A DNA stretch of 37,454 nt from Silvanigrellaceae bacterium (GTDB taxonomy: Bacteria; Bdellovibrionota_B; Oligoflexia; Silvanigrellales; Silvanigrellaceae). A model generated the notes under the pieces. It did not search any database. It was not told the origin of the DNA and worked only from the letters and a program-made list of their open reading frames with translations. The stretch spans positions 1 through 37,454 of the forward strand of contig JBMSQQ010000026.1 of the NCBI GenBank assembly GCA_049423385.1, given 5' to 3'. Positions within the stretch are counted from its first letter, which is position 1. Each line of letters opens with the position of its first letter. This document shows, one piece after another, positions 10,985-34,306 of this stretch. Both the position numbers and the translations under genes were made by a program.

Positions 10985-10991
10985 TGAGGAA

Positions 10992-11018
10992 ATATCGGCA
11001 TTTTGTATCATTTGATGA
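10992..11018 (-). promoter_or_regulatory. Sigma-28 (FliA)-type promoter
   Basis: TCAT-N15-GCCGATAT ending 7 nt before ATG 10984. Confidence 0.4.
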
Positions 11019-11051
11019 AGACTTTTTAAGGGTCAATAAGAAACAATATTT

Positions 11052-12719
11052 TCAGACACTTGCCTTATGAATGTCGCGCACGGCACGACCCGAGGGATCC
11101 GCACTTTGCGAGAATGCCTTGTCCCATTTGATCGCCGTGGGAGTGCTGCAAGCGACACTCGGACCATCTGGAATCAGCCTGACTGCTGATGGATTTCCGA
11201 AATGCGATTCGAAAATGCTCCGGTACCAATAGCCTTCTTTCGTTTGTGGAGTCTTTTCAGGAAATTTGTGGTGCGCATTTTTGAGCATAACATCGCTCAC
11301 CTCCGCATCTGCGAATGCTTTCAGAGAGTCAATCCAGCTGTAACCAACGCCATCGGAAAACTGTTCCTTTTGACGCCAAAGAATCTCATCCGGGATGAGA
11401 CCCTTGAATGCATCACGGAGTATGAATTTTTCGATTTTTCCACCACCACACATTTTGTCTTGCGGGTTGATGCTCATCGCCACGTCCAGAAATTCCTTGT
11501 CAAGAAATGGAACACGAGCTTCAATTCCCCAAGCAGCCATCGCCTTGTTCGCGCGAAGACAATCATATTTATGGAGCATGGATAATTTTCTCAAGAGTTC
11601 TTCATGAAACTCCTGAGCATTGGGCGCCTTGTGAAAATACAGGTATCCACCAAACACTTCATCTGCACCCTCGCCCGATAGAATCATTTTGATTCCCATC
11701 GCGCGAATTTTTCGGGCCATCAGATACATTGGAGTTGCAGCACGGATCGTGGTGATATCGAACGTCTCAAGGTGATAAATGACATCCGGGATCGCATCGA
11801 TACCTTCTTGAACCGTGAAGTTGATTTCATGATGCGTGGAGCCAATGTGCGCAGCAACCTTCTTCGCCATCTTGAGATCCGGAGAATCCTTGAGACCAAC
11901 AGAGAAGGAATGGAGTTGCGGCCACCATGCAGGCTCGCGACCTTCGCTTTCCACACGCCGTGGACTCATCTTTGCAGCAAGTGCAGAAACAAGTGACGAG
12001 TCAACCCCGCCAGAAATCAATACACCGTAGGGAACATCACACATCAACTGGCGTCGCACTGCAGACTCCAAGGCATTTGCCAATCCCGATTCGCCCACAG
12101 GGACTGCTGGAAGTTTGTCGGTTCTGTCCCAGCCAGGCTTGTAATACCTCACAAACTTTTTCTCTGTGCCAAGGTAATAATGTCCAGGTGGGAACTCCTC
12201 GACAACCTTGCACACATCGACAATCGCTTTCAGTTCCGACGAAACATAAAGCGTACCGTTTTGATCCCAGCCCATATAAAGAGGAACGATGCCAATATGA
12301 TCTCGTGCAATCAGATAGGTGTTTCGCGCCTTGTCATACAGGACGAATGCAAAAATGCCGTTTATTTTCTCCAAAAATCCGGCACCGAATTCTTCATACA
12401 GATAAAGGAGAACTTCACAGTCCGATTGCGTTTGAAATTGGTGCTCTTTCTTGAGCTCATTATTGCGCAGTTCGATATGGTTGTAGATTTCTCCATTGAC
12501 CGCCAACACGGAGCCCGTCGCCTGATCCACCAAGGGTTGCGCACCACTCATCACGTCGACAATGGCAAGTCGCTCGTGGCACAAGATGGCATTCCTGTCG
12601 GAGTAGACACCGCTCCAGTCTGGTCCGCGATGTCTCAACTTCTTGACCTTTGCCAGTGCTTCCTTGCGCAGTTGTTGTGGATCACCTGAAATTTCCAAAA
12701 CGGCCAATATTCCGCACAT
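11052..12719 (-). CDS. asnB: Asparagine synthetase B (glutamine-hydrolysing)
   Basis: N-terminal MCGI (Ntn Cys), RHRGPDWSG, HERLAIVD, NGEIYNH, ISGGVDSS, SGEGADEVFGGY, EARVPFLD, QKEQFSDGVG. Confidence 0.97.
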   Translation of the reverse strand: MCGILAVLEISGDPQQLRKEALAKVKKLRHRGPDWSGVYSDRNAILCHERLAIVDVMSGAQPLVDQATGSVLAVNGEIYNHIELRNNELKKEHQFQTQSDCEVLLYLYEEFGAGFLEKINGIFAFVLYDKARNTYLIARDHIGIVPLYMGWDQNGTLYVSSELKAIVDVCKVVEEFPPGHYYLGTEKKFVRYYKPGWDRTDKLPAVPVGESGLANALESAVRRQLMCDVPYGVLISGGVDSSLVSALAAKMSPRRVESEGREPAWWPQLHSFSVGLKDSPDLKMAKKVAAHIGSTHHEINFTVQEGIDAIPDVIYHLETFDITTIRAATPMYLMARKIRAMGIKMILSGEGADEVFGGYLYFHKAPNAQEFHEELLRKLSMLHKYDCLRANKAMAAWGIEARVPFLDKEFLDVAMSINPQDKMCGGGKIEKFILRDAFKGLIPDEILWRQKEQFSDGVGYSWIDSLKAFADAEVSDVMLKNAHHKFPEKTPQTKEGYWYRSIFESHFGNPSAVRLIPDGPSVACSTPTAIKWDKAFSQSADPSGRAVRDIHKASV

Positions 12720-17807: not shown

Positions 17808-17829
17808 CACACCAACCCAATTGTAGAGG

Positions 17830-18771
17830 TTAGAATGCGGACACGATGCCACCAAAAATATAAACCGTCAGGGGGCTCAAATTGACAACATCGGTTTCCT
17901 CGGAAAATTTGAAGCTTCCTTTGACACTCGAAATTTGCGCTCCACCGACCAAGGTGAATGCAGAGCCGAGGTTGAGCCCGGCTGCAAATTCACCACCAAA
18001 TCGTTTGTAGTTGAGTGCCGTTTGCAAGCTGATATCCGTGGACACAATCGACAAATTTCCGGACAGCGGGATCCCGATGATGCCGCCAAGCTTGCAGTAC
18101 AATCGGGCAGAGATGCATTTTGTTATTGATAAAGCCGGATGAATGACAAGTTCGGTGAATTTTGCGGTGACGATGTAATCATCGTTGTTTCCAATCAACG
18201 TTTTTCCGGTCGTTGTTGAACTGAGCGCGGCAACGCCCGCTTCAATGCCAAGCGACGAGCCTGCCATGTATCTGAAAAGAGCTCCGCCAGAATAACCGAT
18301 TCCGCTAAGACCATTGATGGGCTGAGGTGCTGTTTCATTTTCATTTGCAGGCTGCGGCGCGAAGGGTTGCTTGAATGTGTAAAGCCCTGCATTCAATATC
18401 ACCCCGAGGTAAAACTTCTTCCCGCTTCCTGATTTTCCGAGTGCATAGATTGTTCCGGAAACCTTTGGACATTTTCCACCCTTGGAATTGATTGTCACCG
18501 TCGCATTTCGCTTGCTCTTTTTCGTCACAAGGAGGGTCAACGACCTTCCACTCGTGGTTTCTGCCTGGAACGACTCTCCGTTGCGCAGACCATCTGAAGG
18601 CATAATCAACAGGGTGCACTTTTTCTGTTTCAGGACCTCAAAATCGGCGGCTTTTGCATTCTGGGAGACGAAAAAGAACACAAGGGCCAAAAAAAGGCTT
18701 GTAAATGCTGAACATCGCCGCCCTGACCAACCGAAACAACGCAGCAATTTGTGTAATTTTTCTACAGACAA
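17830..18771 (-). CDS. Outer-membrane beta-barrel protein with small N-terminal beta domain
   Basis: Signal peptide ending AKA-ADF, alternating amphipathic strands, C-terminal YIFGGIVSAF with terminal Phe. Start is TTG 18771 (GAGG upstream) or TTG 18795. Confidence 0.7.
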   Translation of the reverse strand: MSVEKLHKLLRCFGWSGRRCSAFTSLFLALVFFFVSQNAKAADFEVLKQKKCTLLIMPSDGLRNGESFQAETTSGRSLTLLVTKKSKRNATVTINSKGGKCPKVSGTIYALGKSGSGKKFYLGVILNAGLYTFKQPFAPQPANENETAPQPINGLSGIGYSGGALFRYMAGSSLGIEAGVAALSSTTTGKTLIGNNDDYIVTAKFTELVIHPALSITKCISARLYCKLGGIIGIPLSGNLSIVSTDISLQTALNYKRFGGEFAAGLNLGSAFTLVGGAQISSVKGSFKFSEETDVVNLSPLTVYIFGGIVSAF

Positions 18772-21335: not shown

Positions 21336-21462
21336 CCCCTCCTTCCGGATCTTTTTCTGAGCAAAATCTTCCCAACTCATGCAAAAGATTTTTTTGAAAA
21401 AAAAGCGAAGGATCATACTTTTAAGTTCGATTCTTGGCAGCCAATTCGGGAGGATTTCCGCC

Positions 21463-22407
21463 ATGACAATTCTCCGAGGAAAAAGAATTCTTTGTGCAAC
21501 CGACCTTTCTCACCCCACGCTTCAGACCGAACGCAAGGCCTTGTCGCTTGCCCGGGCATTCGACGCGAAAGTGACATTTCTTCATGTCCTGGAAGACGCA
21601 CCACTTTTTCTCGGGCCCATGCCATTTGAGGAAGGACAAAAGTGGGAGCAACTTGAAACGAGGTACCGCGGAGAATTGCTTGCACAAACACTTCAAAGAG
21701 CTGAAAACACTCTGTCAACTCTTCGGGACGAGCACGAGCAATTCCAGATTCAAGTCAAACTGGGCAATGCCGAGAACGAGATCATCAATCTGCTTGAACA
21801 AGACCAAGGTCATTTCGGTGGGGTTATTATAGGACGACATCATCATTCAAAATTGTATTCCACAATCTTTGGCACTGTTGCACAACGGATTCTCGAACAA
21901 AGCCCTGTGCCGGTTGTTGTCTTGCCCATGAATGAGGATTCGCAGCCATTCGAATTGAAGAATATTGGACTTGCAACGACAATGCGTCCCGACTCACATA
22001 CAAGTGAAACAATCCTGCGCGAGTTGTTGGAAGCTGATCCGGGTAAAAAGCGCAGCGCTCACCTGGCCTTTTGTTTTGAGCGGGTGTCTCCAGGATACAG
22101 CGGATTCGAGACGACCGATGCCTACACAACATATCGGGAACTTGAAATGATATACGACCTTGCGGAATCAAGATTGCAAAGGGCAATCGAAGAGCGGGCT
22201 CGAATTCTTCAAGAAGATGGCTTCAATGCCACAGGTCACTTGCTGATTGGCAAAACAGAAGACGAACTCAAACAATTTATCATTGACAACAAATTGGATA
22301 TCCTCATCTTTGGAAGACATGCGAAGGAGGGCTCACACAGGTTCAAAACAGGCCGGGTCGTCAGCCGATTTGTGCGCAACACGCCTTGCATTGCCATTGT
22401 AGGTTAA
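21463..22407 (+). CDS. Universal stress protein (tandem UspA domains)
   Basis: RILCATDLS, FLHV, IIGRH...IFGTVAQRILEQSPVPVVV, second domain LIFGRH...GRVVSRFVRNTPC. GGGAGG RBS before ATG 21463. Confidence 0.9.
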   Translation: MTILRGKRILCATDLSHPTLQTERKALSLARAFDAKVTFLHVLEDAPLFLGPMPFEEGQKWEQLETRYRGELLAQTLQRAENTLSTLRDEHEQFQIQVKLGNAENEIINLLEQDQGHFGGVIIGRHHHSKLYSTIFGTVAQRILEQSPVPVVVLPMNEDSQPFELKNIGLATTMRPDSHTSETILRELLEADPGKKRSAHLAFCFERVSPGYSGFETTDAYTTYRELEMIYDLAESRLQRAIEERARILQEDGFNATGHLLIGKTEDELKQFIIDNKLDILIFGRHAKEGSHRFKTGRVVSRFVRNTPCIAIVG

Positions 22408-22436
22408 ATTCCAATCAAACAGGACAACTATTGAAC

Positions 22437-23729
22437 ATGGTCGACAGTCGAATTGAAACAAAGATCCGTTCACTGGAAGAAGCCTTTGCCTTGTTGCCGC
22501 GTTCGGGAAATGTTGTCGTCGCAATGGCAGCTGCAGAGCCTGGGCTTTTTTTTAAGAATCTCCATTCACACGCCGCAAAGCACTCCGAGCTTCGAATCCA
22601 TTGTGCCAATCCCACGCAACCTTATCCGTGTTTTTCCGACATCGGCTTGAACGACCATTTCCATTTCAATGTGATGTTCCTGACCGCTGCGGTCCGCAAT
22701 CTGCAAGGACACAATCTTCTTCACTACGTGCCTCAGCATTTGTCACGATGGTCGCAAAACCTGAGCCGTCGTCATGAAGTGGATGTCTTCTGGGGAACCT
22801 GCAGCCCACCCACTCCAAATGGTTTCGTCAGCTTGGGAGTGAATATCTGCTATGAAAGCGAATTGCTCCGAAAGGCCCGAAAGGTCGTTCTTGAGATCAA
22901 CCCCAATATGCCCGTTGTCTATGGCGACACTTTTGTCCCGGTTGAACAGGTTGACGTTTTTCTGCACAACACCAGACCTCTGCCGGTTTTGATTTCGGAG
23001 GAGCCCACCTCAGAGGATAGACAAATCGCCCAACACATTTCCGAGCTGGTGCCGGATGGAGCGACTCTGCAACTCGGAATTGGAGGCATTCCAAACGCCA
23101 TCGGAGAGTATCTCACTCATAAAAAGGATTTGGGTGTTCACACGGAACTTCTCACCGAATCGATGCGAACCTTGTATGAGCACGGCGTCATCACCGGCGC
23201 AAGAAAAACACTTTGGCCGCGAAAAATGGTCGCCACATTCGTTTACGGCTCGGAATCTCTATACAAAATTGTGGGCGAAAATCCGACCGTCGAAAATCAC
23301 CCTGCTTCGATAATCAACGATCCCAACCGCATCTGCCGCAACCACAAGATTAGCTCAATCAACACCGCGGTGGAGGTGGACATCACCGGACAGGTCTGCT
23401 CGGAATCCATTGGTCACAAGGAACTGAGCGGAGTGGGCGGTGCAACAGATACACATTTGGGAGCGCAGCGTTCCGAGGGGGGCAAGGGAATCATCGCCCT
23501 GCGCTCCACCACAGCCGATGGAAAAACTTCGAAAATCACTTTCGAACTCAAGCCTGGCGCCAAGGTCTCCATCAGCCGCAACGACATCGACACCGTTGTC
23601 ACCGAATACGGAATTGCCGAACTTGTCGGATTGTCGGTGGGGGAACGCGCAAGGGCTCTCATCCGGATTGCCCACCCGAGCATGCGGGAAGAGCTGATGT
23701 TCAACGCCCAGCGTGCAGGATATATTTGA
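22437..23729 (+). CDS. Acetyl-CoA hydrolase/transferase family protein (4-hydroxybutyrate CoA-transferase-like)
   Basis: DGATLQLGIGGIP, GVHTEL (catalytic Glu), INTAVEVDITGQVCSE, VVTEYGIA, RARALIRIAHP. Confidence 0.9.
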   Translation: MVDSRIETKIRSLEEAFALLPRSGNVVVAMAAAEPGLFFKNLHSHAAKHSELRIHCANPTQPYPCFSDIGLNDHFHFNVMFLTAAVRNLQGHNLLHYVPQHLSRWSQNLSRRHEVDVFWGTCSPPTPNGFVSLGVNICYESELLRKARKVVLEINPNMPVVYGDTFVPVEQVDVFLHNTRPLPVLISEEPTSEDRQIAQHISELVPDGATLQLGIGGIPNAIGEYLTHKKDLGVHTELLTESMRTLYEHGVITGARKTLWPRKMVATFVYGSESLYKIVGENPTVENHPASIINDPNRICRNHKISSINTAVEVDITGQVCSESIGHKELSGVGGATDTHLGAQRSEGGKGIIALRSTTADGKTSKITFELKPGAKVSISRNDIDTVVTEYGIAELVGLSVGERARALIRIAHPSMREELMFNAQRAGYI

Positions 23730-23790
23730 AAAATCGAGCTTGACCCTGTCTCTATCGATCCGTAGATTGCCGCAATCCAAGGAGGTTTGC

Positions 23791-24579
23791 ATGAACGGAC
23801 GATTTGCGATTGTATTTGCGGCAACCTGCATGCTTCTTTTGGCCTGCGGCAAAATCCCCGAGGCCGAAACCCGCCTTCTCTCCCGCCTTGAAACGGCGGA
23901 TTTCATCGTGGAAACGTTTGAGATTTCCCAGCAAAATCTTCAGCCTTCCGGAGAGGAACTGGAGTCAATCAAAGCATCAATCTCCGCACAGCAGGAATCC
24001 CTGAATACCCAACCGAAGGTCGAAAACGGGGGCATAATTGAGCGCTCTGTCCTTGAGGACGGGATTGGCGATCGCATCGACACCGTGACCAGAATCGTCA
24101 ATGCCTTTGCCGATATCATGAAAAAAGTGGTCGCCCCCGACACACCGCTCATGAAAGGCAATGTCATTGCCGAGGCTCGCCCCGAAGGCCTGCAACCCAT
24201 CGACCTGCAGAACAGCAAATACGCTGGAAAGACGTTCAAGAAGCGATTCAAAAGTCTCATGGGCTTCACACTTGTCGAGACCGAATACAAAATCACCTAT
24301 GCCTATGCAGCCGACAACAATGGCAAAGGACAGTACATTCCGTACGTTCTTTTCACTCCGATGAAAATTGTGCTCGACCCTCTTTGGCATTTGGAAGCCG
24401 ACTCCCTCTCGCTCGCTCCCAGAAATTCCGGTACACTCGAGAATCCCATCGCCGCACTCGAATTCAATCTTGCATTCAAGGCGAAAGGTCTGACAGGCAC
24501 TGTGATGGCTGCAGACACGTTTTCCTTGAACGCCCAGACAGGTGAGCTCGTGTTCGACGGGAGGGATTTTCAGCCGTAG
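23791..24579 (+). CDS. Hypothetical lipoprotein
   Basis: AAGGAGG RBS, lipobox LLAC, beta-rich C-terminal domain (GKGQYI, NSGTLENPIA). Confidence 0.75.
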   Translation: MNGRFAIVFAATCMLLLACGKIPEAETRLLSRLETADFIVETFEISQQNLQPSGEELESIKASISAQQESLNTQPKVENGGIIERSVLEDGIGDRIDTVTRIVNAFADIMKKVVAPDTPLMKGNVIAEARPEGLQPIDLQNSKYAGKTFKKRFKSLMGFTLVETEYKITYAYAADNNGKGQYIPYVLFTPMKIVLDPLWHLEADSLSLAPRNSGTLENPIAALEFNLAFKAKGLTGTVMAADTFSLNAQTGELVFDGRDFQP

Positions 24580-24612: not shown

Positions 24613-25809
24613 ATGAATTTTCCAACGGATGGTCTTCGCGCCGCGCACAACTTGAGCGCGGGCATTGTTCCTCGTACCACGTCCTCTGATATTGTTGAGA
24701 TGAGTTGGTTCGCCCCAATTTGTTCGGATGATTTTGAATATCTGGGTGTTCCGGAGTCCCGCCTCAAAAGTTCATGGTCACACGTCTCAAAAATTGCAAT
24801 CGAAGCTGAAAAACAAGGGTTCGACAACATGTTGTGCCCCAGCAGCTATCAGGTTGGGCAAGACACGCTCACCTTTGCTTCTGCATTGGCTCCGCAACTC
24901 AAGAAAATGAGTCTCCTGGCAGCCATCCGTTGCGGAGAAGTGCACCCTGCTATGCTCGCGCGAACTCTTGCAACCCTCGACCATCTTCTCGAAGGGCGAC
25001 TGACGGTCAACATCATTTCGTCTGACCTTCCCGGCGAAACGATGGACTCGAAAGCACGCTATGCCCGCTCGCGCGAAGTTTGCCAGATTCTGCGCCAGTG
25101 CTGGACGCAAGAAGAAATCAACTTTGAAGGCGAATTTTATAAACTGAGATTGCCCACCGCGCCCGTCAAGCCTTACCAGCAAAACGGCGGCCCCTTGCTT
25201 TATTTTGGTGGGCTTTCACCCGACGCACTGGATCTTTGTGCACGCGAATGTGACGTGTTCTTGATGTGGCCCGAGACTGAAGATCGCCTGCGTGCGCACA
25301 TGCAGGAAATGACCCGTCGCTCTGAAGCTTATGGCCGGCGTGTGGACTTTGGATTGCGGGTTCACATGATTGTCCGCGAAACAGAACAAGAAGCAGCTGC
25401 TGCAGCCCGAAAACTCGTTTCAAAACTTGATGACGGCAAGGGTTCCGAGATTCGCAACCGGGCTCTTGATGCCAAGTCATTTGGTGTCGCAATGCAAGCC
25501 GAAATGCGTTCGATGGCGGATGAAGACGGCTATGCCGAAGAACTTTTGTGGACGGGTGTGGGCCGAGCACGCTCGGGCTGTGGCTGCGCACTGGTGGGAA
25601 CACCAGACCAGATCGTTGCCAAATTGAACCGCTACATCGACATGGGTATTCGCTCGTTCGTTCTCTCGGGTTACCCTCACCTTGATGAATGCGGGCTCGT
25701 TGGCCGGTACGTTCTTCCACACTTTCGCAGGGGCAAACTGGCCGAAATCCAGGGCCGCATTCCCGCAACTCTTCCCAACACACCCCTTGGAGCAGGAATC
25801 CGTCAATGA
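24613..25809 (+). CDS. smoC: LLM-class flavin-dependent monooxygenase, sulfoquinovose monooxygenase (SmoC/SquD)-like
   Basis: [83 protein letters not shown] and TPLG.G.R match my recollection of Agrobacterium SmoC much better than SsuD. Gene context agrees. Confidence 0.82.
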
Positions 25810-26699
25810 AAAACAACTTTGAAATGTCTCCCTTGGTTTTTGGCGCCTGGCGTTTGGCAGATGTTCCTGCGGAAGCAAATCCCGATTCCGTGGCACGCAA
25901 GATCACCATGGCACTCGAGCACGGCATCACGACGTTCGACCACGCCGACATTTATGGAAACTATGAATGCGAAGACCTGTTTGGCCGCGCTGTCGCCAAA
26001 CACGGAATTCCGCGCGAGAAGATGAAACTCATCACCAAGTGTGGAATCAAGCTGGTTTCAACCAACCGCCCGCAACATGGCATTAAGACATACGACACAA
26101 GCGCAAAGCACATTGTGACCTCGGTTGAAACTTCTCTCAAGAATTTGCGCACCGACAGCATCGACCTGCTGCTGATCCACAGGCCGGACCCACTGATGAA
26201 CCCCGCAGAAGTGAATGAAACCTTCAACACACTGCACAAACAGGGCAAGGTGAAGGCATTTGGTGTTTCGAATTTCACCACGACGCAGGTGCGCATGCTG
26301 CAGTCGCAGTTGACGCTTCCGCTGGTCAGCAACCAGATTGAATTCTCGGTTCTGAACAACACAGCCATGTTCAACGGGCAGCTGGATCAGTGCATTGAAA
26401 TGAACATGGTTCCCATGGCGTGGTCTCCACTTGCAGGTGGACGCCTGTTCACCCAAACTGATGAACGCAGCATGCGCTTGCGCGAATGTCTGTCGACACT
26501 GGCAAAAAAGTACAATGTGACAAGCCCGGAAACGATCGCTTATGCATGGCTGATGAGACATCCTTCGCGTGTTGTTCCGGTTTTGGGTACCGGCAAGGAA
26601 GAGCGTCTGAAAGCCGCTGTCGGTGCGCTCAAGGTGCAACTTGAACATGAAGACTGGTTCCACATTCTCAAGGCATCGGTTGGCCATGACGTGCCGTAA
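25806..26699 (+). CDS. smoB: Aldo/keto reductase (YdhF-like), SmoB/SquF-like 6-oxo-glucose reductase
   Basis: [60 protein letters not shown] overlap with smoC. The family call is solid; the ortholog call rests on context. Confidence 0.75.
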
Positions 26700-27999
26700 T
26701 TTGCGCGCGTCTTGTGGCTTCTTGCTGGCAGCGCTTTCTGGCTTGGTTGCATGCACCTGGAAACCCTTCGGCAGTGCAGGAAACGGAAAGCCGGTTGTGA
26801 AAGTGCTCACATTCCGTGACAGACAATCGGCAGCGTTGAGGGATGCACTGCCGGAGTTCGAGGCACAGCACGACGTGCGCGTGCAATTCGATGACATTCC
26901 AGCCTCGACGGTCGCAACCAAAATGATGACCGACCTTGCTGCCGGCGGAACATACGATGTTTATGCGGTCGACGAACCGTTTATTCCACAGTTTCACGAG
27001 GCACTCCTACCCGTGGAACAATGGCCGGTTCAGATGCCACAGGGCGAACTTTCAAAATTTGAAGACCGGGCCATGGAAGCGGCACGCGTGAATGGCACGA
27101 CGATTGGATTGCCGGTGAATGGCAATGTTTATCAGTACGTGTACCGCAAAGACCTGTTTGAATCGCCAGACGAGAAGGCTGCATTTCGGCAGCGCTTCGG
27201 CAGAGAGCTTCGCCCTGCCGCCAACATGAATGAGCTCATTCAAGTCGCGCAGTTTTTCCACCGCCCACCCAAGCTGTATGGCTTTGCACCATTCACAAAA
27301 ATGTCGGAAGGAACCACTGTCGAATTGCTTTGGCTTCTTGCGGCCAACGGCGCTGCACTGGGGCAGGCGAATACCACTTTCGACAATCCGACCATCGAAA
27401 ACGCGCTGCGCAATTATTCCGAGCTGCTGAAGACAGCGCCGAAGTCCGCACGCGCTTGGCATCACACCGAAAGAATGTCGGCCTATGCCAAAGGCAAGGT
27501 TGCCCAGATGATGACCTGGAACAGCTTCTTTTTCGATTTGGAAGATGAACACAAATCATTGGTCGTCGGCAAAACGGGATACGCGGAATCACCCGGAACA
27601 CATTCCACCAGCCTTGCAGGCAGCTGGATTGCGGGTGTTAGAAAAAGCTCATCCAACGCAGCCGCGGCCAGCGCGTTTGTCCGCTGGTGGACATCGTTTG
27701 AAGTCAACTCCAACCTCGTACACAAGGGCTTGAGCAGTGCGCGCAGTGATGTGCTCACAAACGGACCTCTGGCTGATAAATTCCCTTGGCTGACCACGAC
27801 TCATCTCAATTTTCAACGGGCGTTTTTGCGACCGCGCCACAAGAATTATCGCGCAACATCCGACGAAGTCAGCAAAGCCTTCACCCGATGGATTGCAGGT
27901 CAGACAACTGACACCGAAGCTGCAGCAGCGTTGCGGATTGCCTTGGCGCGCATGGATGAATTGGCACCAGGCCGCATGGCCGGCAAGGAGCCGCGCTGA
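26686..27999 (+). CDS. Carbohydrate ABC transporter substrate-binding lipoprotein
   Basis: Lipobox LVAC, YDVYAVD, GLPVNG..YVYRKDLF, GKVAQMMTW, LAGSW, AFVRW. Confidence 0.9.
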   Translation: MTCRNLRASCGFLLAALSGLVACTWKPFGSAGNGKPVVKVLTFRDRQSAALRDALPEFEAQHDVRVQFDDIPASTVATKMMTDLAAGGTYDVYAVDEPFIPQFHEALLPVEQWPVQMPQGELSKFEDRAMEAARVNGTTIGLPVNGNVYQYVYRKDLFESPDEKAAFRQRFGRELRPAANMNELIQVAQFFHRPPKLYGFAPFTKMSEGTTVELLWLLAANGAALGQANTTFDNPTIENALRNYSELLKTAPKSARAWHHTERMSAYAKGKVAQMMTWNSFFFDLEDEHKSLVVGKTGYAESPGTHSTSLAGSWIAGVRKSSSNAAAASAFVRWWTSFEVNSNLVHKGLSSARSDVLTNGPLADKFPWLTTTHLNFQRAFLRPRHKNYRATSDEVSKAFTRWIAGQTTDTEAAAALRIALARMDELAPGRMAGKEPR

Positions 28000-28886
28000 T
28001 GATGAGCACCAAACTCCAACGTTCGCTGGTCGTTTTTCTATTTCCAGGCTGTGCGCTGCTCACGCTGCTGATCGGCTGGCCCATTCTTCAGAGTGCTTTC
28101 AGTTCACTCACCCTGTTGCCGTCGGGACCTGCAGGCAAACAATTGTTTGCCGGTGCAACCCACTACAAAAATCTTCTCAGCCAAAATTCATTCTGGAATT
28201 CGATCTGGTTGGCAGTTCTTTTCACGGTTGTTACAACTGCTCTCGAACTCTGCATCGGATTGGTTGTGTCATTGTTTCTTTATTTCCAAAAGACCTTGCC
28301 ACGCCTCGTCGAAATACTTCTCATTTTGCCGATGTTCATTCTGCCGGTCGTGTCTGGGCTCACCTTCCGTTACATTTATGATCCCAACGATGGCCCCTTG
28401 TCGTTTGTCTTTGATGCTTTGGGTATTGAACCTGCTGCGCCATTGGCGGATCCTTTCTGGGCGTTTTGGTCGATTGTTCTTCAGGACATCTGGCGGATGT
28501 GGCCTTTCCTGTTTTTGATTGTCTATGCTGGCCTCAAAGCCTTGCCGCGCTCTGCACAGGAAGCGGCGCGCATGGACGGCGCAAGCACATGGCAGATCAT
28601 CAAATTCATACTTTTGCCTGCATTGCGTCCCACACTCGGTATTGCCGTGGGGCTCAAGATCATGGAGTCGCTCAAGGTTTTCACTGAGGTTTACGTCATG
28701 ACGGGCGGCGGCCCGGGCGACTCGACGTCGTTGTTGTCGCTTTACGTCGTCAAGCAGGCTTTCCACTTTTTCCAGACGGGGCCAGCCTCGGCAGCGTCCA
28801 TCTTGTTGCTGGCCTTTGGCATGGCACTCGCGTGGTCAATCACACGCATTCAAAATCGAACAGCACCTGCGGGGAGTGCGCATTGA
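27999..28886 (+). CDS. Carbohydrate ABC transporter permease (MalF-type)
   Basis: DIWRMWPF, EAARMDGAS (EAA loop), VMTGGGPG. TGATG coupling to the upstream gene. Confidence 0.93.
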   Translation: MMSTKLQRSLVVFLFPGCALLTLLIGWPILQSAFSSLTLLPSGPAGKQLFAGATHYKNLLSQNSFWNSIWLAVLFTVVTTALELCIGLVVSLFLYFQKTLPRLVEILLILPMFILPVVSGLTFRYIYDPNDGPLSFVFDALGIEPAAPLADPFWAFWSIVLQDIWRMWPFLFLIVYAGLKALPRSAQEAARMDGASTWQIIKFILLPALRPTLGIAVGLKIMESLKVFTEVYVMTGGGPGDSTSLLSLYVVKQAFHFFQTGPASAASILLLAFGMALAWSITRIQNRTAPAGSAH

Positions 28887-29719
28887 TGATTCAGGTGGAA
28901 CAACGCCCATTGCCAACAGTTTCAAAGATTATCATTGCAGCATTGTTGTTTTTGCAATTGGCACCCATTGCAATCATCATCCAGACAGCATTCAAAACAC
29001 CACGCAGCCTCTTGGAAAGTGGTTCGCTTTCGATGCAAGGATGGACGCTTGGCAATTTTCACCGGATTTTTGTTGAACAGAGTTTGGGCGCTGATCTTCT
29101 CAATTCAGTCGTCGTGGCGATGGGAACCATGGCGCTTTCGGTTTGCTGTGGATCTCTGATGGCCTATGCACTCACCCGTTGGCAGGGTAAGAATCGCAAA
29201 CATCTGCTCACAACTCTCCTCGTTGCCCGCTTGTTGCCTCCTGTGGCTCTGGCTCTGCCACTCTTTTTGGTGTTGCGTGGCCTGAATCTGCATGATTCAC
29301 GCAGTGGTTTGATTCTTGCCCACACGGCTTTGAATTTTCCCTTGGCAACGTGGATCCTCATGCCATTCATGGACAGTGTGCCAAGGGCCTTGGAGGAGGC
29401 AGCGTCGATCGACGGCGCAGGCCGATTCAGAACATTTGCTCACATCGTGCTGCCGGTCACAAAACCTGGTCTTGTGGTCGCCTCATTGTTTTGTTTTTTG
29501 ATGAGCTGGAACGACTTCCTGTTCTCGCTGATTCTTGCGGGTTCCGAGGTCAAGACAGCCCCCCTTACGCTCAACGGTTACATCACCGGATTCGGCACTG
29601 AATGGGGCCCTTTGAGCGCAGGAGCTTGTGTTCTTCTGCTGCCCGTTTTTGCTCTGTCTTTTAAACTTCATCAACACATGATCGCTGCGCCCACGCAGGG
29701 CGGCGTTAAGGGAGCCTGA
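28886..29719 (+). CDS. Carbohydrate ABC transporter permease (MalG-type)
   Basis: AFKT, LNS, AYAL, LEEAASIDGAG, SWNDFLF. TGATG coupling to the upstream gene. Confidence 0.93.
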   Translation: MIQVEQRPLPTVSKIIIAALLFLQLAPIAIIIQTAFKTPRSLLESGSLSMQGWTLGNFHRIFVEQSLGADLLNSVVVAMGTMALSVCCGSLMAYALTRWQGKNRKHLLTTLLVARLLPPVALALPLFLVLRGLNLHDSRSGLILAHTALNFPLATWILMPFMDSVPRALEEAASIDGAGRFRTFAHIVLPVTKPGLVVASLFCFLMSWNDFLFSLILAGSEVKTAPLTLNGYITGFGTEWGPLSAGACVLLLPVFALSFKLHQHMIAAPTQGGVKGA

Positions 29720-29720
29720 C

Positions 29721-31832
29721 ATGAGAATTTCAAACGAAGCAGCTCAGGACATCAATTTCCCGCTCACACCCGAATGGCCATCGCTGACAGCGAGAGCTCG
29801 TGGTGCGGTGCGCATGACGCCAGTGACTGCCTGCGAATTGATGCCTTCACGCGAGCGCAATTCTTTCCTGAAGTTCCAACTCACGTTCAAGGATGGAACC
29901 ACCACGAATCTTCAAATCGGTGCTCTCGACACCACACCACACGCATGGATGTTGTGGATGGGCGAAGCTTCCCGCAAGCATGATCTTTTAAGCAACGTCA
30001 TGTCCAACGAAATCACCAGCGAGAAGACCGCTGCGGGTTGGTGTTTGCGCTCGGCGGCGGGGACTCTGGAAATCAATCGCCTAACCGCCGCAATCTGCAT
30101 CCGCGATGCAGCCGGAAAGCGTGCGTGGAGTTCGGTCGACAAGGATCTGTTCGTGGGTGATGTGCCGATGAGCTTTGCCGCTTTTCGGCATGCCGACGGA
30201 TTTGGAATGACTTTTGATTTTGGAGAATGCCAGCAGATCTGGGGCGGCGGTGAACAATTCGGCCCAACCAATTGGCGCGGCAAGCTCTATGACGTGATCA
30301 ATTCGGATGCGTTGGGCGTCAATGGTCACCTGCGCTACCAAAGCACGCCTTTTTTTGTGAGCGAACGCGGGCATTCATTTGCCATGCTTCAATGTGAACC
30401 GGGACGAATTGATTTCGGCTCGCGTCGACACGACATGATCACTTTCAGCAGCGATGGTCAGGTGCTCGGTCTTTACCTGGCAATGCCAGCAGATCAACCC
30501 ACCGCAATCGAAAAATGGCGTGCGTTGATGGGTGGTGTGAGCAGTGTGCCCGCATGGAGTTACGGACTTTGGCTTTCACGCTGTTTCTACAAGGATGAAG
30601 CCGAACTGCGCACCGTGATTGATGGTAACAGCAAACACAATCTGGGTGCCACGGTCATCAATCTTGATGCACGTGCGTGGATGCGTGCGCAGACTCGCAC
30701 CGACTTTGTCTGGGACACTTCGCGTTGGAGCCCTTATCAAACCTTCATTCCCTGGCTACGCGAGCAAGGATTTCATGTTTGCCTTTGGGAAAATCCGTAT
30801 GTGTCGTCGGCAACAGAAACACTTTATGCCGAAGGCGTGCGCAACGGATATTTCGCCAAAACAGCCAAAGGCGAAGTTTATCCATACCAATGGGTTCCCA
30901 CCGGACTTGAAGGTTTCCCTCAACCACCCGTGGCTGGCCTTGTTGATTTCACCAATCCGAAAGCCTGCACCTGGTGGAAAGATCAACACCGTGCACTTTT
31001 GCGCGCTGGCGTCACCTGTTTCAAAACAGACTTCGGCGAAGAAATTCCTCATGATGCTCACTTTCACGACGGCAGCACCGGCAAGCAGCTGCGCAACGTC
31101 TATTCGGATCTCTACAATCTCTGCGTGATGGAAGTCGTGCGCGAGGAATGCGGAGATGAAGGAATTCTGTGGGCACGATCGGGTTACACCAAGATGGGCA
31201 AGACTCCAGTGAAATGGGCTGGCGACAGCCAAACCTCGTGGACGGCATTGCGCGCCTCGTTGCGCGGTGGATTGTCGCAGGCCGTGGGTGGTGCTGTGTT
31301 CTGGTCGCATGACATTGGCGGCTTTTATGGTCCGTTTCCTGATGCGGAATTATACGTGCGTTGGACGCAGGTCGGACTCTGGGGCAGCCACGCCCGCATG
31401 CATGGCACGAGTGCGCGCGAACCATGGGAATTTGGCACGGCGGCAATGGACCAGGTGCGCAAAGACGTTCGCTTCAGAACGGAACTCCTGCCCTACTGGA
31501 CTGCCTGCGGCGAACAATGCACACGCAGCCAACAAAGCTTTGTTCGGCCGCTGTGGATGGCAAATCCTGCGGACGCCTTGAGCTGGACTGTCGAAGACCA
31601 GTTCTTTGCAGGCTCAAACGAAGTTGTCGTGGCACCCTATCTCAGTGCTGAAGGTGGGCGTCGTGTCTATCTACCGGCGGGGGAATGGCTTTGCCTCAAC
31701 AGCGGAACAACGTTTCCGGGACACACCCTTGAAAACATCGACCGATGGAACGAATGCCCGGTGTTTATCAGAACTGATTCAGCCTGGAAGGAATTGTTCG
31801 CGAAGGCGTGGGCGAAAGTTTACGGAAGATAA
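29721..31832 (+). CDS. Glycoside hydrolase family 31 (YicI/alpha-xylosidase-like sequence; candidate sulfoquinovosidase by context)
   Basis: WGGGEQFG, PAWSYGLWLSR, CLWENPY, VDFTNP, nucleophile FKTDFGE, acid/base WAGD, WSHDIGGF, RMHG..REPW. Confidence 0.92.
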   Translation: MRISNEAAQDINFPLTPEWPSLTARARGAVRMTPVTACELMPSRERNSFLKFQLTFKDGTTTNLQIGALDTTPHAWMLWMGEASRKHDLLSNVMSNEITSEKTAAGWCLRSAAGTLEINRLTAAICIRDAAGKRAWSSVDKDLFVGDVPMSFAAFRHADGFGMTFDFGECQQIWGGGEQFGPTNWRGKLYDVINSDALGVNGHLRYQSTPFFVSERGHSFAMLQCEPGRIDFGSRRHDMITFSSDGQVLGLYLAMPADQPTAIEKWRALMGGVSSVPAWSYGLWLSRCFYKDEAELRTVIDGNSKHNLGATVINLDARAWMRAQTRTDFVWDTSRWSPYQTFIPWLREQGFHVCLWENPYVSSATETLYAEGVRNGYFAKTAKGEVYPYQWVPTGLEGFPQPPVAGLVDFTNPKACTWWKDQHRALLRAGVTCFKTDFGEEIPHDAHFHDGSTGKQLRNVYSDLYNLCVMEVVREECGDEGILWARSGYTKMGKTPVKWAGDSQTSWTALRASLRGGLSQAVGGAVFWSHDIGGFYGPFPDAELYVRWTQVGLWGSHARMHGTSAREPWEFGTAAMDQVRKDVRFRTELLPYWTACGEQCTRSQQSFVRPLWMANPADALSWTVEDQFFAGSNEVVVAPYLSAEGGRRVYLPAGEWLCLNSGTTFPGHTLENIDRWNECPVFIRTDSAWKELFAKAWAKVYGR

Positions 31833-34222
31833 GCGCATCGGAAGCCTCGTTCGCCGGCGGTTTGAGTTGGATCTACATTGAATACCGTGGTGAACACACC
31901 AGCTGTACTACCCCATCCATACCACCCGTTACGCATGACTGCGTCACCAGAGCCAGGAACGCTTCTTTCCAATTTTCCGACATACTGGGCAGTGGTGTAA
32001 TTTCCATTTGGCGCGAATATCAGTCGATTTATTAAGTCGGGAAAATTTGTAAGGTCACTATATTCGCTGCTGGTTGCAACAACTGGATTCAACCCCAATT
32101 CCGAGAAATTGTCGCTGACCCACTGAAATATGTTACCCGAAAAATCCCAAACAACTTCGCCATTGCTGAGAAAAAGTGTTCGACGGTGCTCCCAACCCGA
32201 AGTTGGACTATTGCCTGTCCCATAATAGCCATCGGAATCATCTGCTGAGTTGTCCAACTTCGAGCTTGGAGAAGTATCGGTGTGACCACGTGCCATAAAA
32301 CCACTTCCGACCGTTCCCCCACTCCAGTTTGCAGCAACGTTTTCAACATTTCGCGCCACTGTTTGCCACTGCGTGTTTGAAATGAGCCGGTGCGTTCCGC
32401 CTGGTGCGTCCTTACACGCTTTAAATGCACTCCCAAAGGTGGCCTCGTTGGCACCACGTGTAATCATTCCCCAAGGCAAGCCTGACGATGTGCTTGTGGC
32501 ATAGGCTTTTGCATTGTTGTCTTTGGCTGGATATTTCATCACGCAAAAGTCTTTATCAACGTCAAGCCACCAATTTGCATTCCCCTTCGCTGCACTGGCA
32601 TTACCAAGACCGTCAATGCCGCTGGCCGGTACGCCGACGTAACCCACAGGACATAAAAACGCGGAACGGGTAAATGTTCTGGAAGAAATTGGTCCGGGTA
32701 CTCCTGCCACATCCGACCAGGCATCCACAGTCACCGATTGCGAAATTCCGGCGGGAAGGTGAACCTCAACAGAAAGATTGTTCGACGTGCAGGTCACAGA
32801 ACGCACAGAGCCGATGGATGACTTCGCCTGATAAGAACCAATTCCATCACACGTTCCGGTTAAAATCGCCCGAAGACCGCTGAGTGAAGTCAAAGTGAGT
32901 GCCGACGAGTTCACATTGACCAAAAATTTACTGGTCGTTGTGAGAAGTCCGTCGGAAGCTGTCATGATGACTTCGGTGCTTCCGCTTTGATTGTTTGCCG
33001 GAAAGATGGAAAGCACGCAATCAGGTGCACTGCCTCCAACGACGATTCCAGAGTTTGGTAAAAGAGTTGTGTTGCTCGACCGAATTGTGACGGAAGAGGA
33101 ACAGGAAAGGGGTGATTCTGCGTCTGTCAGAGTGAATGGCAAGTTCAGGATTGGTTTGTTTACTTCCACCGATTGCGCCGGAATGGCTGCTATATCGGGA
33201 GCGGTATTGCTGCTGAGAGGTGAAACTCGAAACACTGGCGAGAGTCTGATTTCAGTTGATGACTCAGCAACAAAGCGTGCGTAGACATCTGTTCCTTCTG
33301 TGAATGGAAAACCCGATTTTAAAATTCCGCATTGACCCACGCTGGACAGATCAAGTGGTCCACTTGCAGCGCTGCGGAAACCCAAATCCGTGCAGCCATA
33401 AAAATCGCTGACCACATTCACTCCGGCTGCCGCGCCCGGCCAGACAGGTGTTGTTTCGATCAGGCCGTCCCAATTGGACACTTCCGCCTGGGATTTTGAA
33501 AACACCAAGCGCACATCTGCCGTTTGAGGGAATGGATTTTTCCACTCGAAACGAGCAGAAGTCGCACTGCTTAGATTGTCGACGCTGGTCCACATTCCTG
33601 GCTTTTTGCCCGCAACTGCTTCAACATTCGGAAGAGATGACACTTTAATTTTTTGCTTTGTGGGCGTGATTTGAGTGATATCCGTGGAACTTAATACTCC
33701 GCCGATGTTTTCTGGAATCTGCAATCCAAGTCTTCGTTTGAAAACTGTGATCGGTGCGGTTCCATCGGGCAATTTTGCGGCTGCTTGTGCGGTTTCCTCC
33801 CCTGCCAGAGGCGGAGCACCTGCATCGGCTCGTGCTTGATTGACAGGCCTGATGAGCTCCTCAGGAAGTTCAAGATCAGACAAAACAAGCTTGCTTTGCA
33901 GAACCACCTTCAATGGAATTGATTTGGATTTGATTTCAGTCACAGGCAGCGAAAACTCACCAGCTTGATTGGTTTTGCTTTGATAGCTGGAATTCTCGAC
34001 ACTCAGCGTGGCATCGACGACAGGTGAGCCATTGTACTCCAGCAACACGCCCGTCAAGAACGATCCCAGAACTGGGGTCGGTGGAATCACATCGCCCGGA
34101 GGCGGCATTGAACCATTTGTTCCCGAAGAGCCACCAAAGACTGATGACTTTTTTTGGCAAGCAAGTCCCGAACAAGCGAACAAAACAAGAGCGAGCATCA
34201 ATCCTGAGCCCTTGGACAGCAT
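31820..34222 (-). CDS. Large lipoprotein: Ig/cadherin-like stalk plus C-terminal FGE-sulfatase-like (C-type lectin fold) domain
   Basis: Lipobox (LFAC or GLAC). Cadherin-like repeat NTAP.I..IP...TDAE...SSN..LLP...ASDG. C-terminal CPVGYVGVP, FCVMKY, LISNTQW, WDFSGNIFQWV, GFRC. Start at ATG 34222 (GAGG RBS). Confidence 0.82.
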   Translation of the reverse strand: MLSKGSGLMLALVLFACSGLACQKKSSVFGGSSGTNGSMPPPGDVIPPTPVLGSFLTGVLLEYNGSPVVDATLSVENSSYQSKTNQAGEFSLPVTEIKSKSIPLKVVLQSKLVLSDLELPEELIRPVNQARADAGAPPLAGEETAQAAAKLPDGTAPITVFKRRLGLQIPENIGGVLSSTDITQITPTKQKIKVSSLPNVEAVAGKKPGMWTSVDNLSSATSARFEWKNPFPQTADVRLVFSKSQAEVSNWDGLIETTPVWPGAAAGVNVVSDFYGCTDLGFRSAASGPLDLSSVGQCGILKSGFPFTEGTDVYARFVAESSTEIRLSPVFRVSPLSSNTAPDIAAIPAQSVEVNKPILNLPFTLTDAESPLSCSSSVTIRSSNTTLLPNSGIVVGGSAPDCVLSIFPANNQSGSTEVIMTASDGLLTTTSKFLVNVNSSALTLTSLSGLRAILTGTCDGIGSYQAKSSIGSVRSVTCTSNNLSVEVHLPAGISQSVTVDAWSDVAGVPGPISSRTFTRSAFLCPVGYVGVPASGIDGLGNASAAKGNANWWLDVDKDFCVMKYPAKDNNAKAYATSTSSGLPWGMITRGANEATFGSAFKACKDAPGGTHRLISNTQWQTVARNVENVAANWSGGTVGSGFMARGHTDTSPSSKLDNSADDSDGYYGTGNSPTSGWEHRRTLFLSNGEVVWDFSGNIFQWVSDNFSELGLNPVVATSSEYSDLTNFPDLINRLIFAPNGNYTTAQYVGKLERSVPGSGDAVMRNGWYGWGSTAGVFTTVFNVDPTQTAGERGFRCAYLP

Positions 34223-34278
34223 AACCCTCTCTTTTCCGTGATCGCTACGAAATTCCATTTCCGAACAGCCTCGCGGGT

Positions 34279-34306
34279 GAATCGGCTTTCCCAGTGACAA
34301 ACTTTA
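34279..34306 (-). promoter_or_regulatory. Sigma-28 (FliA)-type promoter
   Basis: TAAAGTTT...GCCGATTC (TAAA-N16), about 55 nt upstream of ATG 34222. Confidence 0.55.

Follow-up and report, generated by a model that had tools for sequence, protein, structure and literature searches.

A YicI-like GH31 glycosidase with an arginine-bearing loop as the probable sulfoquinovosidase of a sulfo-SMO operon in Silvanigrellaceae

Background

In glycoside hydrolase family GH31, the canonical sulfoquinovosidases (SQases) YihQ and SmoI are distinguished by the Q/E-RWY sulfonate motif, which in EcYihQ consists of Q288, R301, W304 and Y508 (PMC12780224). An SQase of a different kind, AmSqgH (WP_014951134.1, MASE_18025), was described in December 2025 by Ma et al. 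(PMC12780224), who report a formal assignment of SqgH to CAZy subfamily GH31_3. AmSqgH is a YicI-like GH31 enzyme with sulfoquinovosidase activity and without detectable activity on PNPXyl or PNPGlc; its residual activity was 1.4% for R302G, 1.5% for K412E and 2.5% for F513G, but 74% for T377A (PMC12780224).

One of the closest described systems is the sulfo-SMO cluster smoABCDEFGHI of Agrobacterium tumefaciens (Sharma et al. 2022, PMC8795539). According to that article, SmoI is the SQase of this cluster, residues W206, R236, H238, Y341 and H343 of SmoC bind sulfoquinovose (SQ), SmoC is specific to SQ and inactive on SQGro, and sulfo-SMO hosts are reported from Alpha- and Betaproteobacteria. 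A second glycosidase of a smo cluster, MsGH13 from Marinovum sp., had been proposed as an SQase and, according to a preprint (10.1101/2023.03.31.535182), proved to be a broad α-glucosidase without SQase activity.

Here, we describe a GH31 gene in a stretch of 37,454 nucleotides from a Silvanigrellaceae bacterium (contig JBMSQQ010000026.1; "the window" in the following), whose product is probably the SQase of a sulfo-SMO operon.

Results and discussion

Scaffold and annotation

The ORF 29721..31832 (forward strand, as are all features below) begins with ATG and encodes a GH31 glycosidase of 703 residues, a putative SQase of the group named clade A below. Its domains PF13802, PF01055 and PF21365 score 36.9, 249.5 and 49.7 bits, all above the cut-offs, and no signal peptide is visible. 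With an AF2 model (pLDDT 93), a fold search gave Z values of 35-44 for solved GH31 structures; as YicI-type (about 39-42) and YihQ-type enzymes (about 42) are tied, the fold does not discriminate between them. By sequence, the nearest solved scaffolds are YicI (GH31_3; 1WE5, 2F2H) and BT_0339 with 278-284 bits, whereas YihQ and SmoI (GH31_13; 5AED, 5OHS, 7OFX) reach only 86-110 bits at 25% identity. What the enzyme has in common with YihQ and SmoI are the GH31 fold (Z about 42), the proposed reaction and the place in the pathway.

Among the NCBIfam models, the one for YicI (NF007940) matches best, with 390.9 bits, below its equivalog cut-off of 606 bits. NF007746, which we take to be the YihQ model, scores 190 bits and thus also stays below its cut-off (553). 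Close homologues carry the source name alpha-D-xyloside xylohydrolase, which is the kind of automatic annotation that the first-pass annotation had predicted for this enzyme. Such names, together with the YicI model as best match, would suit an ordinary α-xylosidase or α-glucosidase without SQase activity, which is located beside smo genes for some other reason, e.g. for trimming co-imported α-glucosides; a score of 391 bits against a cut-off of 606 argues against this alternative. The ORF is the sole GH31 gene of the genome, which is 90.6% complete. Within the same 90.6%-complete genome, a search with a YihQ-type model gave nothing at the cut-off, and PF01408, presumably an indicator of a GH188 enzyme (SqgA) and used as its proxy, had no match.

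Active-site residues

The FKTDFGE motif (residues 434-440, nt 31020-31040) and the loop VINLDARAWMRAQTRTDFVWD (residues 312-332, 30654..30716), which follows barrel strand 312-315, are present in the ORF exactly as the first-pass annotation had claimed. Its comparator motifs were checked on the E. coli K-12 sequences: YicI reads FHFDC-FWMKAFQWCDFEWD and CFKTDFGER, YihQ reads WAQDWSGIRMTSFGKRVMWNWKWN and GWMADFGEY. Residues were mapped by means of a MAFFT alignment of 235 sequences with these two proteins as comparators. In this alignment, D316, A317, A319, R322 and R326 of the ORF match D306, C307, F308, K311 and W315 of YicI, and R318 (codon 30672..30674) is a one-residue insertion relative to YicI, which is common to clades A, B and C. 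Arginines thus replace or flank the Cys/Phe and Trp positions of YicI, as had been noticed beforehand, and the YicI loop DC-FW…W reads DARAW…R. By contrast, the remaining key positions of YicI are kept: K414 and the nucleophile D416 as K435 and D437 (K435-T436-D437, 31023..31031), the general acid/base D482 as D502 (31224..31226), and F515 as F535 (31323..31325). According to the alignment to YicI, the GH31 catalytic pair D437/D502 is therefore present. YihQ differs in its nucleophile motif (WMADFGE in place of FKTDFGE) and in an 11-residue insertion, missing from the ORF, that contains Q288, R301 and W304; its Y508 is equivalent to F535. In agreement with these comparisons and with about 280 bits to YicI, the earlier description of a YicI scaffold lacking the canonical SQase motif can be retained.

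R318, R326, K435, D437 and D502 are invariant in all 50 homologues, which were selected according to their rank by score and reach down to 39% identity, so the Arg-loop motif is not a product of chance. The mapping supports the assignment of arginine to positions that, as judged from the sequence, line the -1 subsite on its C6 side. C307, F308 and W315 of YicI presumably have a role in xylose specificity; that they read A317, A319 and R326 here is a further argument against an ordinary xylosidase or glucosidase. On the other hand, an arginine near C6 would fit any anionic C6 group. The enzyme might then hydrolyze a different C6-modified or anionic α-glucoside (a glucuronoside, 6-phospho-glucoside or 6-deoxy-glucoside) and not SQ glycosides, a reading which we consider very improbable in view of the gene context presented below.

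Relation to SqgH

The first-pass annotation had seen in this ORF a candidate for a new lineage of SQases. In this respect it was preceded by AmSqgH, the YicI-like SQase published in December 2025 (PMC12780224), whose R302 is the counterpart of R326 (codon 30696..30698). The two residues are aligned in both MAFFT and gap-free BLAST, and R326 is, by analogy to the essential R302, the arginine with experimental backing. SqgH residues K412, F513, D414 and D480 correspond to K435, F535, D437 and D502; as YicI has equivalents of all four, they are not discriminating for SqgH. The position of T377 is occupied by a proline of GFPQPP, if counted back from the conserved DFT motif.

AmSqgH and the window enzyme share a YicI-like scaffold without Q/E-RWY motif, the one-residue insertion bearing the first arginine (LD[AG]R.W), the lysine, the phenylalanine and the catalytic Asp pair; both are encoded in SQ-catabolic clusters and have no visible signal peptide. 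They differ in the loop and nucleophile sequences (DAR…TRTDFVWD and FKTDFGEE in the window, DGR…TRFAFEWD and KADFGEQ in AmSqgH), in the pathway partner (sulfo-SMO with an ABC importer versus sulfo-SDO) and in the host (freshwater Silvanigrellaceae for the window clade, marine Gammaproteobacteria for SqgH). Identity to SqgH-like proxies is 31% over aligned columns for the best of them, and 36% over 523 residues to the protein P0200. Since AmSqgH has been published and both the essential and the inserted arginine are in common, the window GH31 is, on sequence grounds, a deeply diverged relative of an SQase type that was already known and not its first example. The shared essential arginine also disfavors the reading as an ordinary xylosidase or glucosidase, as AmSqgH is an SQase without detectable PNPXyl or PNPGlc activity.

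Genomic context

The GH31 gene is the last one of a tightly packed operon consisting of smoC, a SmoB-like reductase, a binding protein, two permeases and the glycosidase, whose starts and stops overlap or abut. In E. coli, the context is a different one: yicI lies beside the transporter gene yicJ. The first gene (24613..25809, AAGGAG upstream of its ATG) encodes an orthologue of SmoC, the FMNH2-dependent sulfoquinovose monooxygenase; it scores 502 bits with RoSmoC (7OH2) and 494 bits with AtSmoC (7OLF), but only 214 and 195 bits with SsuD, and all five of the SQ-binding residues listed above are kept. The second gene (25806..26699; PF00248), which probably starts with ATG 25806 and shares the sequence ATGA with the stop codon of smoC, encodes an aldo-keto reductase of the YdhF/SmoB family and putative 6-oxo-glucose reductase. 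The match is at family level only, as YdhF-like structures (255-269 bits) score above SmoB (7BBZ/7BBY, 238-239 bits). An ABC solute-binding lipoprotein of CUT1 type follows (26686..27999; PF01547/PF13416), with a lipobox-like LVAC in the N-terminus after ATG 26686. It is not of SmoF type: MalE3 (6DTQ) scores 58 bits and SmoF (7NBZ) only 35 bits, which leaves the imported ligand putative. Its closer similarity to maltose/trehalose binders than to SmoF is a point in favor of an ordinary xylosidase or glucosidase. ABC permease 1 (27999..28886; PF00528) is preceded by AAGGAG, and permease 2 (28886..29719; PF00528) has its likely ATG at 28886, which overlaps the stop of permease 1 by a single nucleotide.

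Like the A. tumefaciens cluster (PMC8795539), the window thus combines SmoC, a SmoB-family reductase, an ABC importer and a terminal glycosidase. However, its glycosidase and binding protein stem from other lineages, and the smo cluster of the window has no smoA reductase, regulator or ABC ATPase. An ABC ATPase is present at the distant locus L022. No flavin reductase (SmoA) was found in the 16 window ORFs scanned, and PF01613 had no match genome-wide; PF03358 (FMN_red) detected three genes, all on other contigs. Upstream, genes for a Usp protein, an acetyl-CoA hydrolase/transferase and the lipoprotein orf288 (21379..24579; Pfam) adjoin the operon. They lie outside the conserved core, being syntenic in close relatives only and missing at the distant loci L022 and L023. 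Elsewhere in the window, the 826-residue ORFs 15375-17855 and 31820-34300 were considered as paralogues, which was rejected on comparison.

As SmoC is reported to be specific to SQ and inactive on SQGro (PMC8795539), the operon needs an SQ-releasing step. The GH31 is the only glycosidase candidate for it, which argues against a substrate other than SQ glycosides.

Co-occurrence with smoC

A GH31 with both R318 and R326 was found at 21 loci. At 13 of these, smoC and the reductase are present; the other eight lie on contigs of 1.5-7.5 kb, which break off short of the smoC position. Thus, GH31 and smoC are neighbors wherever the locus is informative (13 of 13; two gene orders), and the linkage of the homologues to SQ genes, on which the first-pass annotation had made its proposal depend, was found at these loci. 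Dereplication at 95% identity left 17 lineages, the window among them, and smoC is present in 11. Even where GH31 identity has dropped to 44-46%, and in both gene orders, the link persists (L022, L023). No smoC was found at the 60 loci with other GH31 loop types, 18 of which span at least 12 kb. Among 34 genomes of the order, which are related and not independent, 16 have both genes, one (76% complete) has smoC only, none has the GH31 only and 17 have neither; five genera have the genes, four do not.

This context and co-distribution support the assignment as strongly as bioinformatics allows. The GH31 occurs without smoC in none of the 34 genomes and at none of the 13 informative loci, which is hard to reconcile with an ordinary α-xylosidase or α-glucosidase. 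The precedent for such an enzyme is MsGH13, which resembles the window GH31 in being a non-canonical glycosidase of a smo-type cluster with proposed SQase function. Note, however, that MsGH13 is a member of GH13 for which no SQase relative is known, whereas the window GH31 has a proven one with the key arginine. Altogether, we regard an ordinary xylosidase or glucosidase as improbable. The complete co-distribution with smoC likewise disfavors another anionic glucoside as substrate.

Phylogeny

Clade A comprises 70 sequences and is monophyletic with support values of 1.0 and 100 (starred). All 70 members have A317, R318 and R326, while R322 varies within the clade; R318 occurs also in a clade without R326. 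Clade A is separate from the SqgH-like clade B, which includes proteins with the exact AmSqgH loop. AmSqgH, which is itself outside the trees, was placed via these proxies; with this representation the window GH31 lies phylogenetically outside clade B. Homologue searches seeded with SqgH-like proteins gave no Alteromonas protein among the best 120 matches. With FastTree, clades B and C group with YicI-type enzymes (0.90-0.96). A site-heterogeneous IQ-TREE analysis did not separate the order of A, B, C and D+E, but has A, B and C on one side of a branch with support 44. Of the earlier proposal that the sulfonate pocket evolved convergently, the part relating to YihQ can be upheld; within the YicI-like group, the trees give no clear branching order. 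Of the 298 sequences typed, 257 (those of clades A, B and C) have the one-residue arginine insertion LD[AG]R.W, whereas sequences of type D read DC-[FYH]W…W (32 of 33) or DT-FW…W (1 of 33).

The sister clade of type C has no R326 and is found beside genes for a lactaldehyde-dehydrogenase-like protein and a transaldolase of ordinary type, which indicates that Arg-loop enzymes need not all act on SQ and favors, to this extent, another anionic substrate. At the type-C locus, a candidate sulfo-TAL cluster, the transaldolase scores 286 bits as TalC-type versus 174 bits as SF-transaldolase, and the dehydrogenase 379 bits as lactaldehyde dehydrogenase versus 284 bits with 8C54, which we take to be an SLA dehydrogenase. 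The binding protein of the window is 35% identical to that of the type-C locus L025.

Proposed function

The enzyme is probably an SQase, which is our preferred reading. Building on the observed anatomy, alignments, operon, co-occurrence and clade structure, we infer the substrate, the role of each arginine and the transport ligand as follows. Sulfoquinovosyl glycerol, the putative ligand, would enter through the co-encoded binding-protein/permease system. The GH31, presumably a cytoplasmic retaining α-glycosidase with D437 as nucleophile and D502 as acid/base, would split it into sulfoquinovose and glycerol. SmoC would then take sulfite off sulfoquinovose to give 6-oxo-glucose, which the aldo-keto reductase would convert to glucose. 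The C6 sulfonate would be recognized by R326, the equivalent of AmSqgH R302, on a YicI-like scaffold without the Q/E-RWY set of YihQ and SmoI, probably assisted by R318 and the conserved K435 and F535.

Conclusion

The GH31s of clades A, B and C, with their Arg insertion (LD[AG]R.W), may even constitute one ancient and largely unrecognized SQase superfamily of single origin, of which AmSqgH is one twig and which was recruited to at least four SQ pathways: SMO in clade A, SDO in the published case, and, in clades B and C, respectively, a sulfo-EMP-like cluster (on a megaplasmid of Deinococcus) and a sulfo-TAL-like one. We put this forward tentatively and consider it rather doubtful. If it were true, surveys would widely underestimate the SQ gateway step, above all in fresh water, as members are automatically named α-xylosidases and fall under the 40% identity thresholds applied.

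SQase surveys rely on similarity to YihQ, SqgA and now SqgH; a 2026 review used a threshold of at least 40% identity. Clade A would escape them because of its 25% identity to YihQ, its 31-36% identity to SqgH-like proteins and its naming as α-xylosidase. If the function proposed here is confirmed, DAR.W…TRTDF together with an adjoining smoC would make a simple annotation signature, and SqgH-type SQases would be extended to the SMO pathway. With a host from Bdellovibrionota instead of the Alpha- and Betaproteobacteria named in PMC8795539, the SMO pathway itself would be extended to Silvanigrellaceae, which are common freshwater bacteria. In these, the proposed release of sulfoquinovose, a plant sulfosugar, from its glycerol glycoside would feed a desulfurizing pathway.

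Active site of the GH31 enzyme

The ORF at 29721-31832 (forward strand) starts with ATG and encodes a GH31 protein of 703 aa with the Pfam domains PF13802, PF01055 (249.5 bits) and PF21365. The first-pass annotation had placed an Arg-rich loop at about nt 30654-30716 and read the nucleophile motif as FKTDFGE; both are exact in the translated ORF, the loop VINLDARAWMRAQTRTDFVWD forming residues 312-332 and the motif residues 434-440. The comparator motifs given there were likewise correct when checked on the fetched E. coli K-12 sequences: YicI contains the loop FHFDC-FWMKAFQWCDFEWD and the nucleophile motif CFKTDFGER, YihQ the segment WAQDWSGIRMTSFGKRVMWNW and GWMADFGEY. E. coli K-12 yicI and yihQ (from the annotated record) were aligned with 232 homologues. 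In this alignment, D316, A317, A319, R322 and R326 correspond to D306, C307, F308, K311 and W315 of YicI, and K435, D437 and D502 to K414, D416 and D482; F535 is equivalent to YicI F515 and YihQ Y508. R318 is a one-residue insertion relative to YicI. Residues Q288, R301 and W304 of YihQ lie within an 11-residue insertion, which is absent from the GH31 of the window.

By sequence, this enzyme is YicI-like: among PDB entries it scored 284 bits with BT_0339 (5F7C) and 278-279 with YicI, compared with 110 for YihQ and 86-88 for SmoI. The top NCBIfam match was to the equivalog model for YicI alpha-xylosidase (391 bits versus a cut-off of 606); PRK10426, which we take to be the YihQ model, gave 190 bits versus 553. 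Both scores thus stay under the equivalog cut-offs. A confident AlphaFold2 model based on 50 homologues (pLDDT 93, pTM 0.92) shows residues 312-315 as a barrel strand, immediately followed by the Arg-bearing loop. Structure comparison did not tell the YicI type from the YihQ type: Z was 38.9-42.0 over 628-638 aligned residues for entries of the former and about 42 over 563-576 for those of the latter.

Phylogeny of the Arg-insertion enzymes

When homologues of the GH31 were searched for, 1556 of 8000 scored candidates reached E ≤ 1e-30. Within the best 120 of these, P0001-P0067 scored 441-1633 bits at 41-96% identity, followed by a break to 414 bits and about 35% identity. R318, R326, K435, D437 and D502 were kept in all of 50 homologues chosen by rank from the upper group, down to 39% identity. 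Loop typing of 298 sequences distinguished type A (DAR…R, 70 sequences), B (DGR…TRF, 181), C (DGR…YQ, 6), the YicI-like type D (DC-FW…W, 33) and 8 others. Trees computed on the whole alignment recovered A, B and C each as a clade; support for clade A was 1.0 in FastTree and 100 in IQ-TREE (LG+C20 PMSF, 54 sequences). Because the loop served to define the types, what the trees add independently is the exact match of each type to a single clade. FastTree groups B and C with the YicI types (0.90-0.96); under the better model, IQ-TREE gives a polytomy, with A, B and C on the same side of a branch of support 44. The trees thus do not agree on how A, B, C and the YicI-type group branch; the one-residue insertion common to the three clades suggests that they may share an ancestor.

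Comparison with SqgH

An SQase of this kind has been described. According to the accessible text and supplement of Ma et al. 2025 (PMC12780224), AmSqgH of Alteromonas macleodii hydrolyzes SQGro and PNPSQ, but neither PNPXyl nor PNPGlc, lacks Q/E-RWY, and occurs in sulfo-SDO clusters of marine Gammaproteobacteria; its clade is near GH31_3 and GH31_6, the formal CAZy-method assignment being GH31_3. Predicted binding residues are R302, T377, K412 and F513, and residual activities were 1.4% (R302G), 1.5% (K412E), 2.5% (F513G) and 74% (T377A). The loop in Supplementary Data 4 is LDGRAWQDTDTRFAFEWD and the R302G primer puts R302 at TR, so that R302 corresponds to R326 of the window GH31; the inserted Arg is also common to both enzymes. 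A BLAST comparison with P0200, a homologue having the exact AmSqgH loop, aligned the loops gap-free (36% identity over 523 aa). In the same source, the tested GH31_6 representative was inactive on PNPSQ, and GH31_6 enzymes have no Arg at either loop position. AmSqgH itself is absent from our trees; its placement was read from the best available proxies, P0285 and P0293 (each with 4/8 AmSqgH motifs), both of which lie in clade B. Over aligned columns, the window GH31 is 31% identical to these proxies, 27% to YicI and 25% to YihQ. The enzyme is predicted to work like SqgH, yet falls outside the clade holding the SqgH-like sequences.

The 'D414A' forward primer, as printed in the supplementary table of PMC12780224, encodes …D-M-L-K-A-D-F-G-E-Q… and seems to keep the Asp codon, whereas for R302G and K412E the primer sequences do carry the intended substitutions (wild type verifiable to residue 400). 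This may bear on the 51% residual activity reported for D414A, the nucleophile mutant.

The name SqgH was met in just two relevant papers of the literature searched, which contained no paper combining Silvanigrella and sulfoquinovose; the accessible parts of two 2026 papers on aquatic SQ degraders mention neither Silvanigrellaceae nor Bdellovibrionota.

Operon and genome context

Six forward-strand genes spanning 24613 to 31832 adjoin or overlap (ATGA junction, 1-nt overlap, 1-nt gap). The first, starting at 24613, encodes a luciferase-like monooxygenase, SmoC, with 502 bits to RoSmoC (7OH2) and 494 to AtSmoC (7OLF) versus 214 and 195 to SsuD; all five SQ-recognition residues (W206, R236, H238, Y341, H343) in the accessible text of Sharma et al. 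2022 (PMC8795539), which also identifies the two entries, are kept. The product of the second belongs to the YdhF/SmoB family of aldo-keto reductases and scores 255-269 bits with YdhF-like entries and 239 with SmoB. A solute-binding lipoprotein (26686-27999) and two ABC permeases, genes four and five, precede the GH31. The binding protein differs from the SmoF type (35 bits to SmoF versus 58 to MalE3). With its counterpart adjoining a clade-C GH31 at locus L025 it shares 35% identity (E 1e-86), which suggests a second, undescribed lineage of putative sulfoquinovoside-binding proteins.

Neither a flavin reductase nor an ABC ATPase was found in the six-gene cluster. PF01613 has zero matches in the genome; three PF03358 FMN reductase genes are all on other contigs. 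The genome (3.47 Mb, 90.6% complete) has a single GH31 gene, that of the window, and no other gene in it emerged as an SQase candidate; PF01408, a possible pointer to a GH188 SQase, likewise gave no hit.

Immediately upstream of smoC, the ORF at 23791-24579 (forward strand) has no Pfam or NCBIfam match, carries a lipoprotein-type signal (…LLLAC) and is conserved in the closest relatives only (L005, L006, partly L015). It is preceded on the same strand (21379-23729) by a tandem universal-stress-protein gene and by one of the acetyl-CoA hydrolase/transferase family; both are in synteny at the loci of the family and missing from the distant L022 and L023.

Linkage to smoC

Co-occurrence with smoC, proposed as a check of the Arg-loop homologues, was found. 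Among 81 GH31 loci (9 from species genomes and 72 fetched from metagenomes via the clade alignment), 21 encode R318 plus R326, and 13 of these have a SmoC-like gene plus reductase; the remaining 8 are contigs of 1.5-7.5 kb ending short of the expected smoC position. The other 60 loci, whose GH31s have different loops, lack a SmoC-like gene; 18 of them are at least 12 kb. Dereplication of the 21 R318-plus-R326 loci at 95% identity, window included, left 17 lineages, 11 with smoC. At L022 (GH31 44% identical, SmoC 61%), the six-gene order is identical, with an added ABC ATPase and unrelated flanks; at L023 (46% and 61%), smoC and reductase are divergent from the GH31 and the ABC system is absent. 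Among 34 genomes of the order, 16 encode the GH31, at 48-100% identity. Each of these also has a strong SmoC match, and in 11 the two genes are on one contig, about 4 kb apart. A strong SmoC match occurs in 17; the single smoC-only genome has a completeness of 76%. In one further genome the best that was seen is a monooxygenase of 30% identity, and the rest, 13 of them from one genus, have neither gene. Kin genomes do not count as independent; by genus, 5 have both genes and 4 have neither.

The GH31s of L081 (about 9400-12157) and L082 (9839-11650) have Arg in the R326 column and no inserted Arg (HLDA-TWQRAEERSDLRWD). No smoC is near them; Arg in this column alone is no predictor of smo linkage.

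Other Arg-insertion clusters

On a Deinococcus peraridilitoris megaplasmid, L089 (NC_019789.1 88551-110581) contains a clade-B GH31 (locus positions 9932-12118) with the SqgH-like loop LDGRAWLEVDTR and KTDFAEQV, annotated just as 'TIM-barrel domain-containing protein'. Its neighbours are, besides a GntR regulator, an ABC importer and an AEC exporter, an SSADH-type dehydrogenase, a fucose-isomerase-family protein, a PfkB kinase and a tagatose-bisphosphate-type aldolase. SqvD, an SQ isomerase, belongs to the fucose-isomerase family, PF02952 (accessible text of PMC9594981), and by predicted gene content the layout is sulfo-EMP-like. In L025 (2670-12665; also L026), the clade-C GH31 LDGRAWLRHGYQTDFQWD retains the first Arg and has Gln for the second. 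Next to it are a transaldolase of 214 aa and an aldehyde dehydrogenase, along with a LarA-like protein, an ABC importer and an isomerase-like protein that matches PF02952 weakly. The enzymes of this locus are closer to ordinary homologues than to solved SQ-pathway ones in PDB comparison; the pathway could be sulfo-TAL-like or serve 6-deoxy-hexosides. Together, both clusters suggest that sulfoquinovosides may be the substrates of the entire Arg-insertion group.

Proposed function

The sequence data show the operon, the catalytic and Arg pairs and the linkage. In the proposed mechanism, the ABC system would import SQGro and the GH31 would free SQ. In YicI, C307, F308 and W315 help to exclude a C6 group; on this face, R326 and possibly R318 would bind the sulfonate. 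SmoC would then desulfurize SQ with FMNH2 from a reductase encoded elsewhere, and the operon reductase would yield glucose. The Marinovum GH13 case, as far as the accessible source describes it, illustrates that cluster membership alone can mislead; in contrast to that case, the window GH31 is also related to a proven SQase and shares its key Arg. Of the initial proposal of a new, convergently evolved SQase, the function, as a prediction, and the convergence with YihQ are upheld, but the kind of enzyme was already described with AmSqgH (PMC12780224). The window GH31 is probably an SQase, from a new freshwater clade that is sister to SqgH and linked to SMO.
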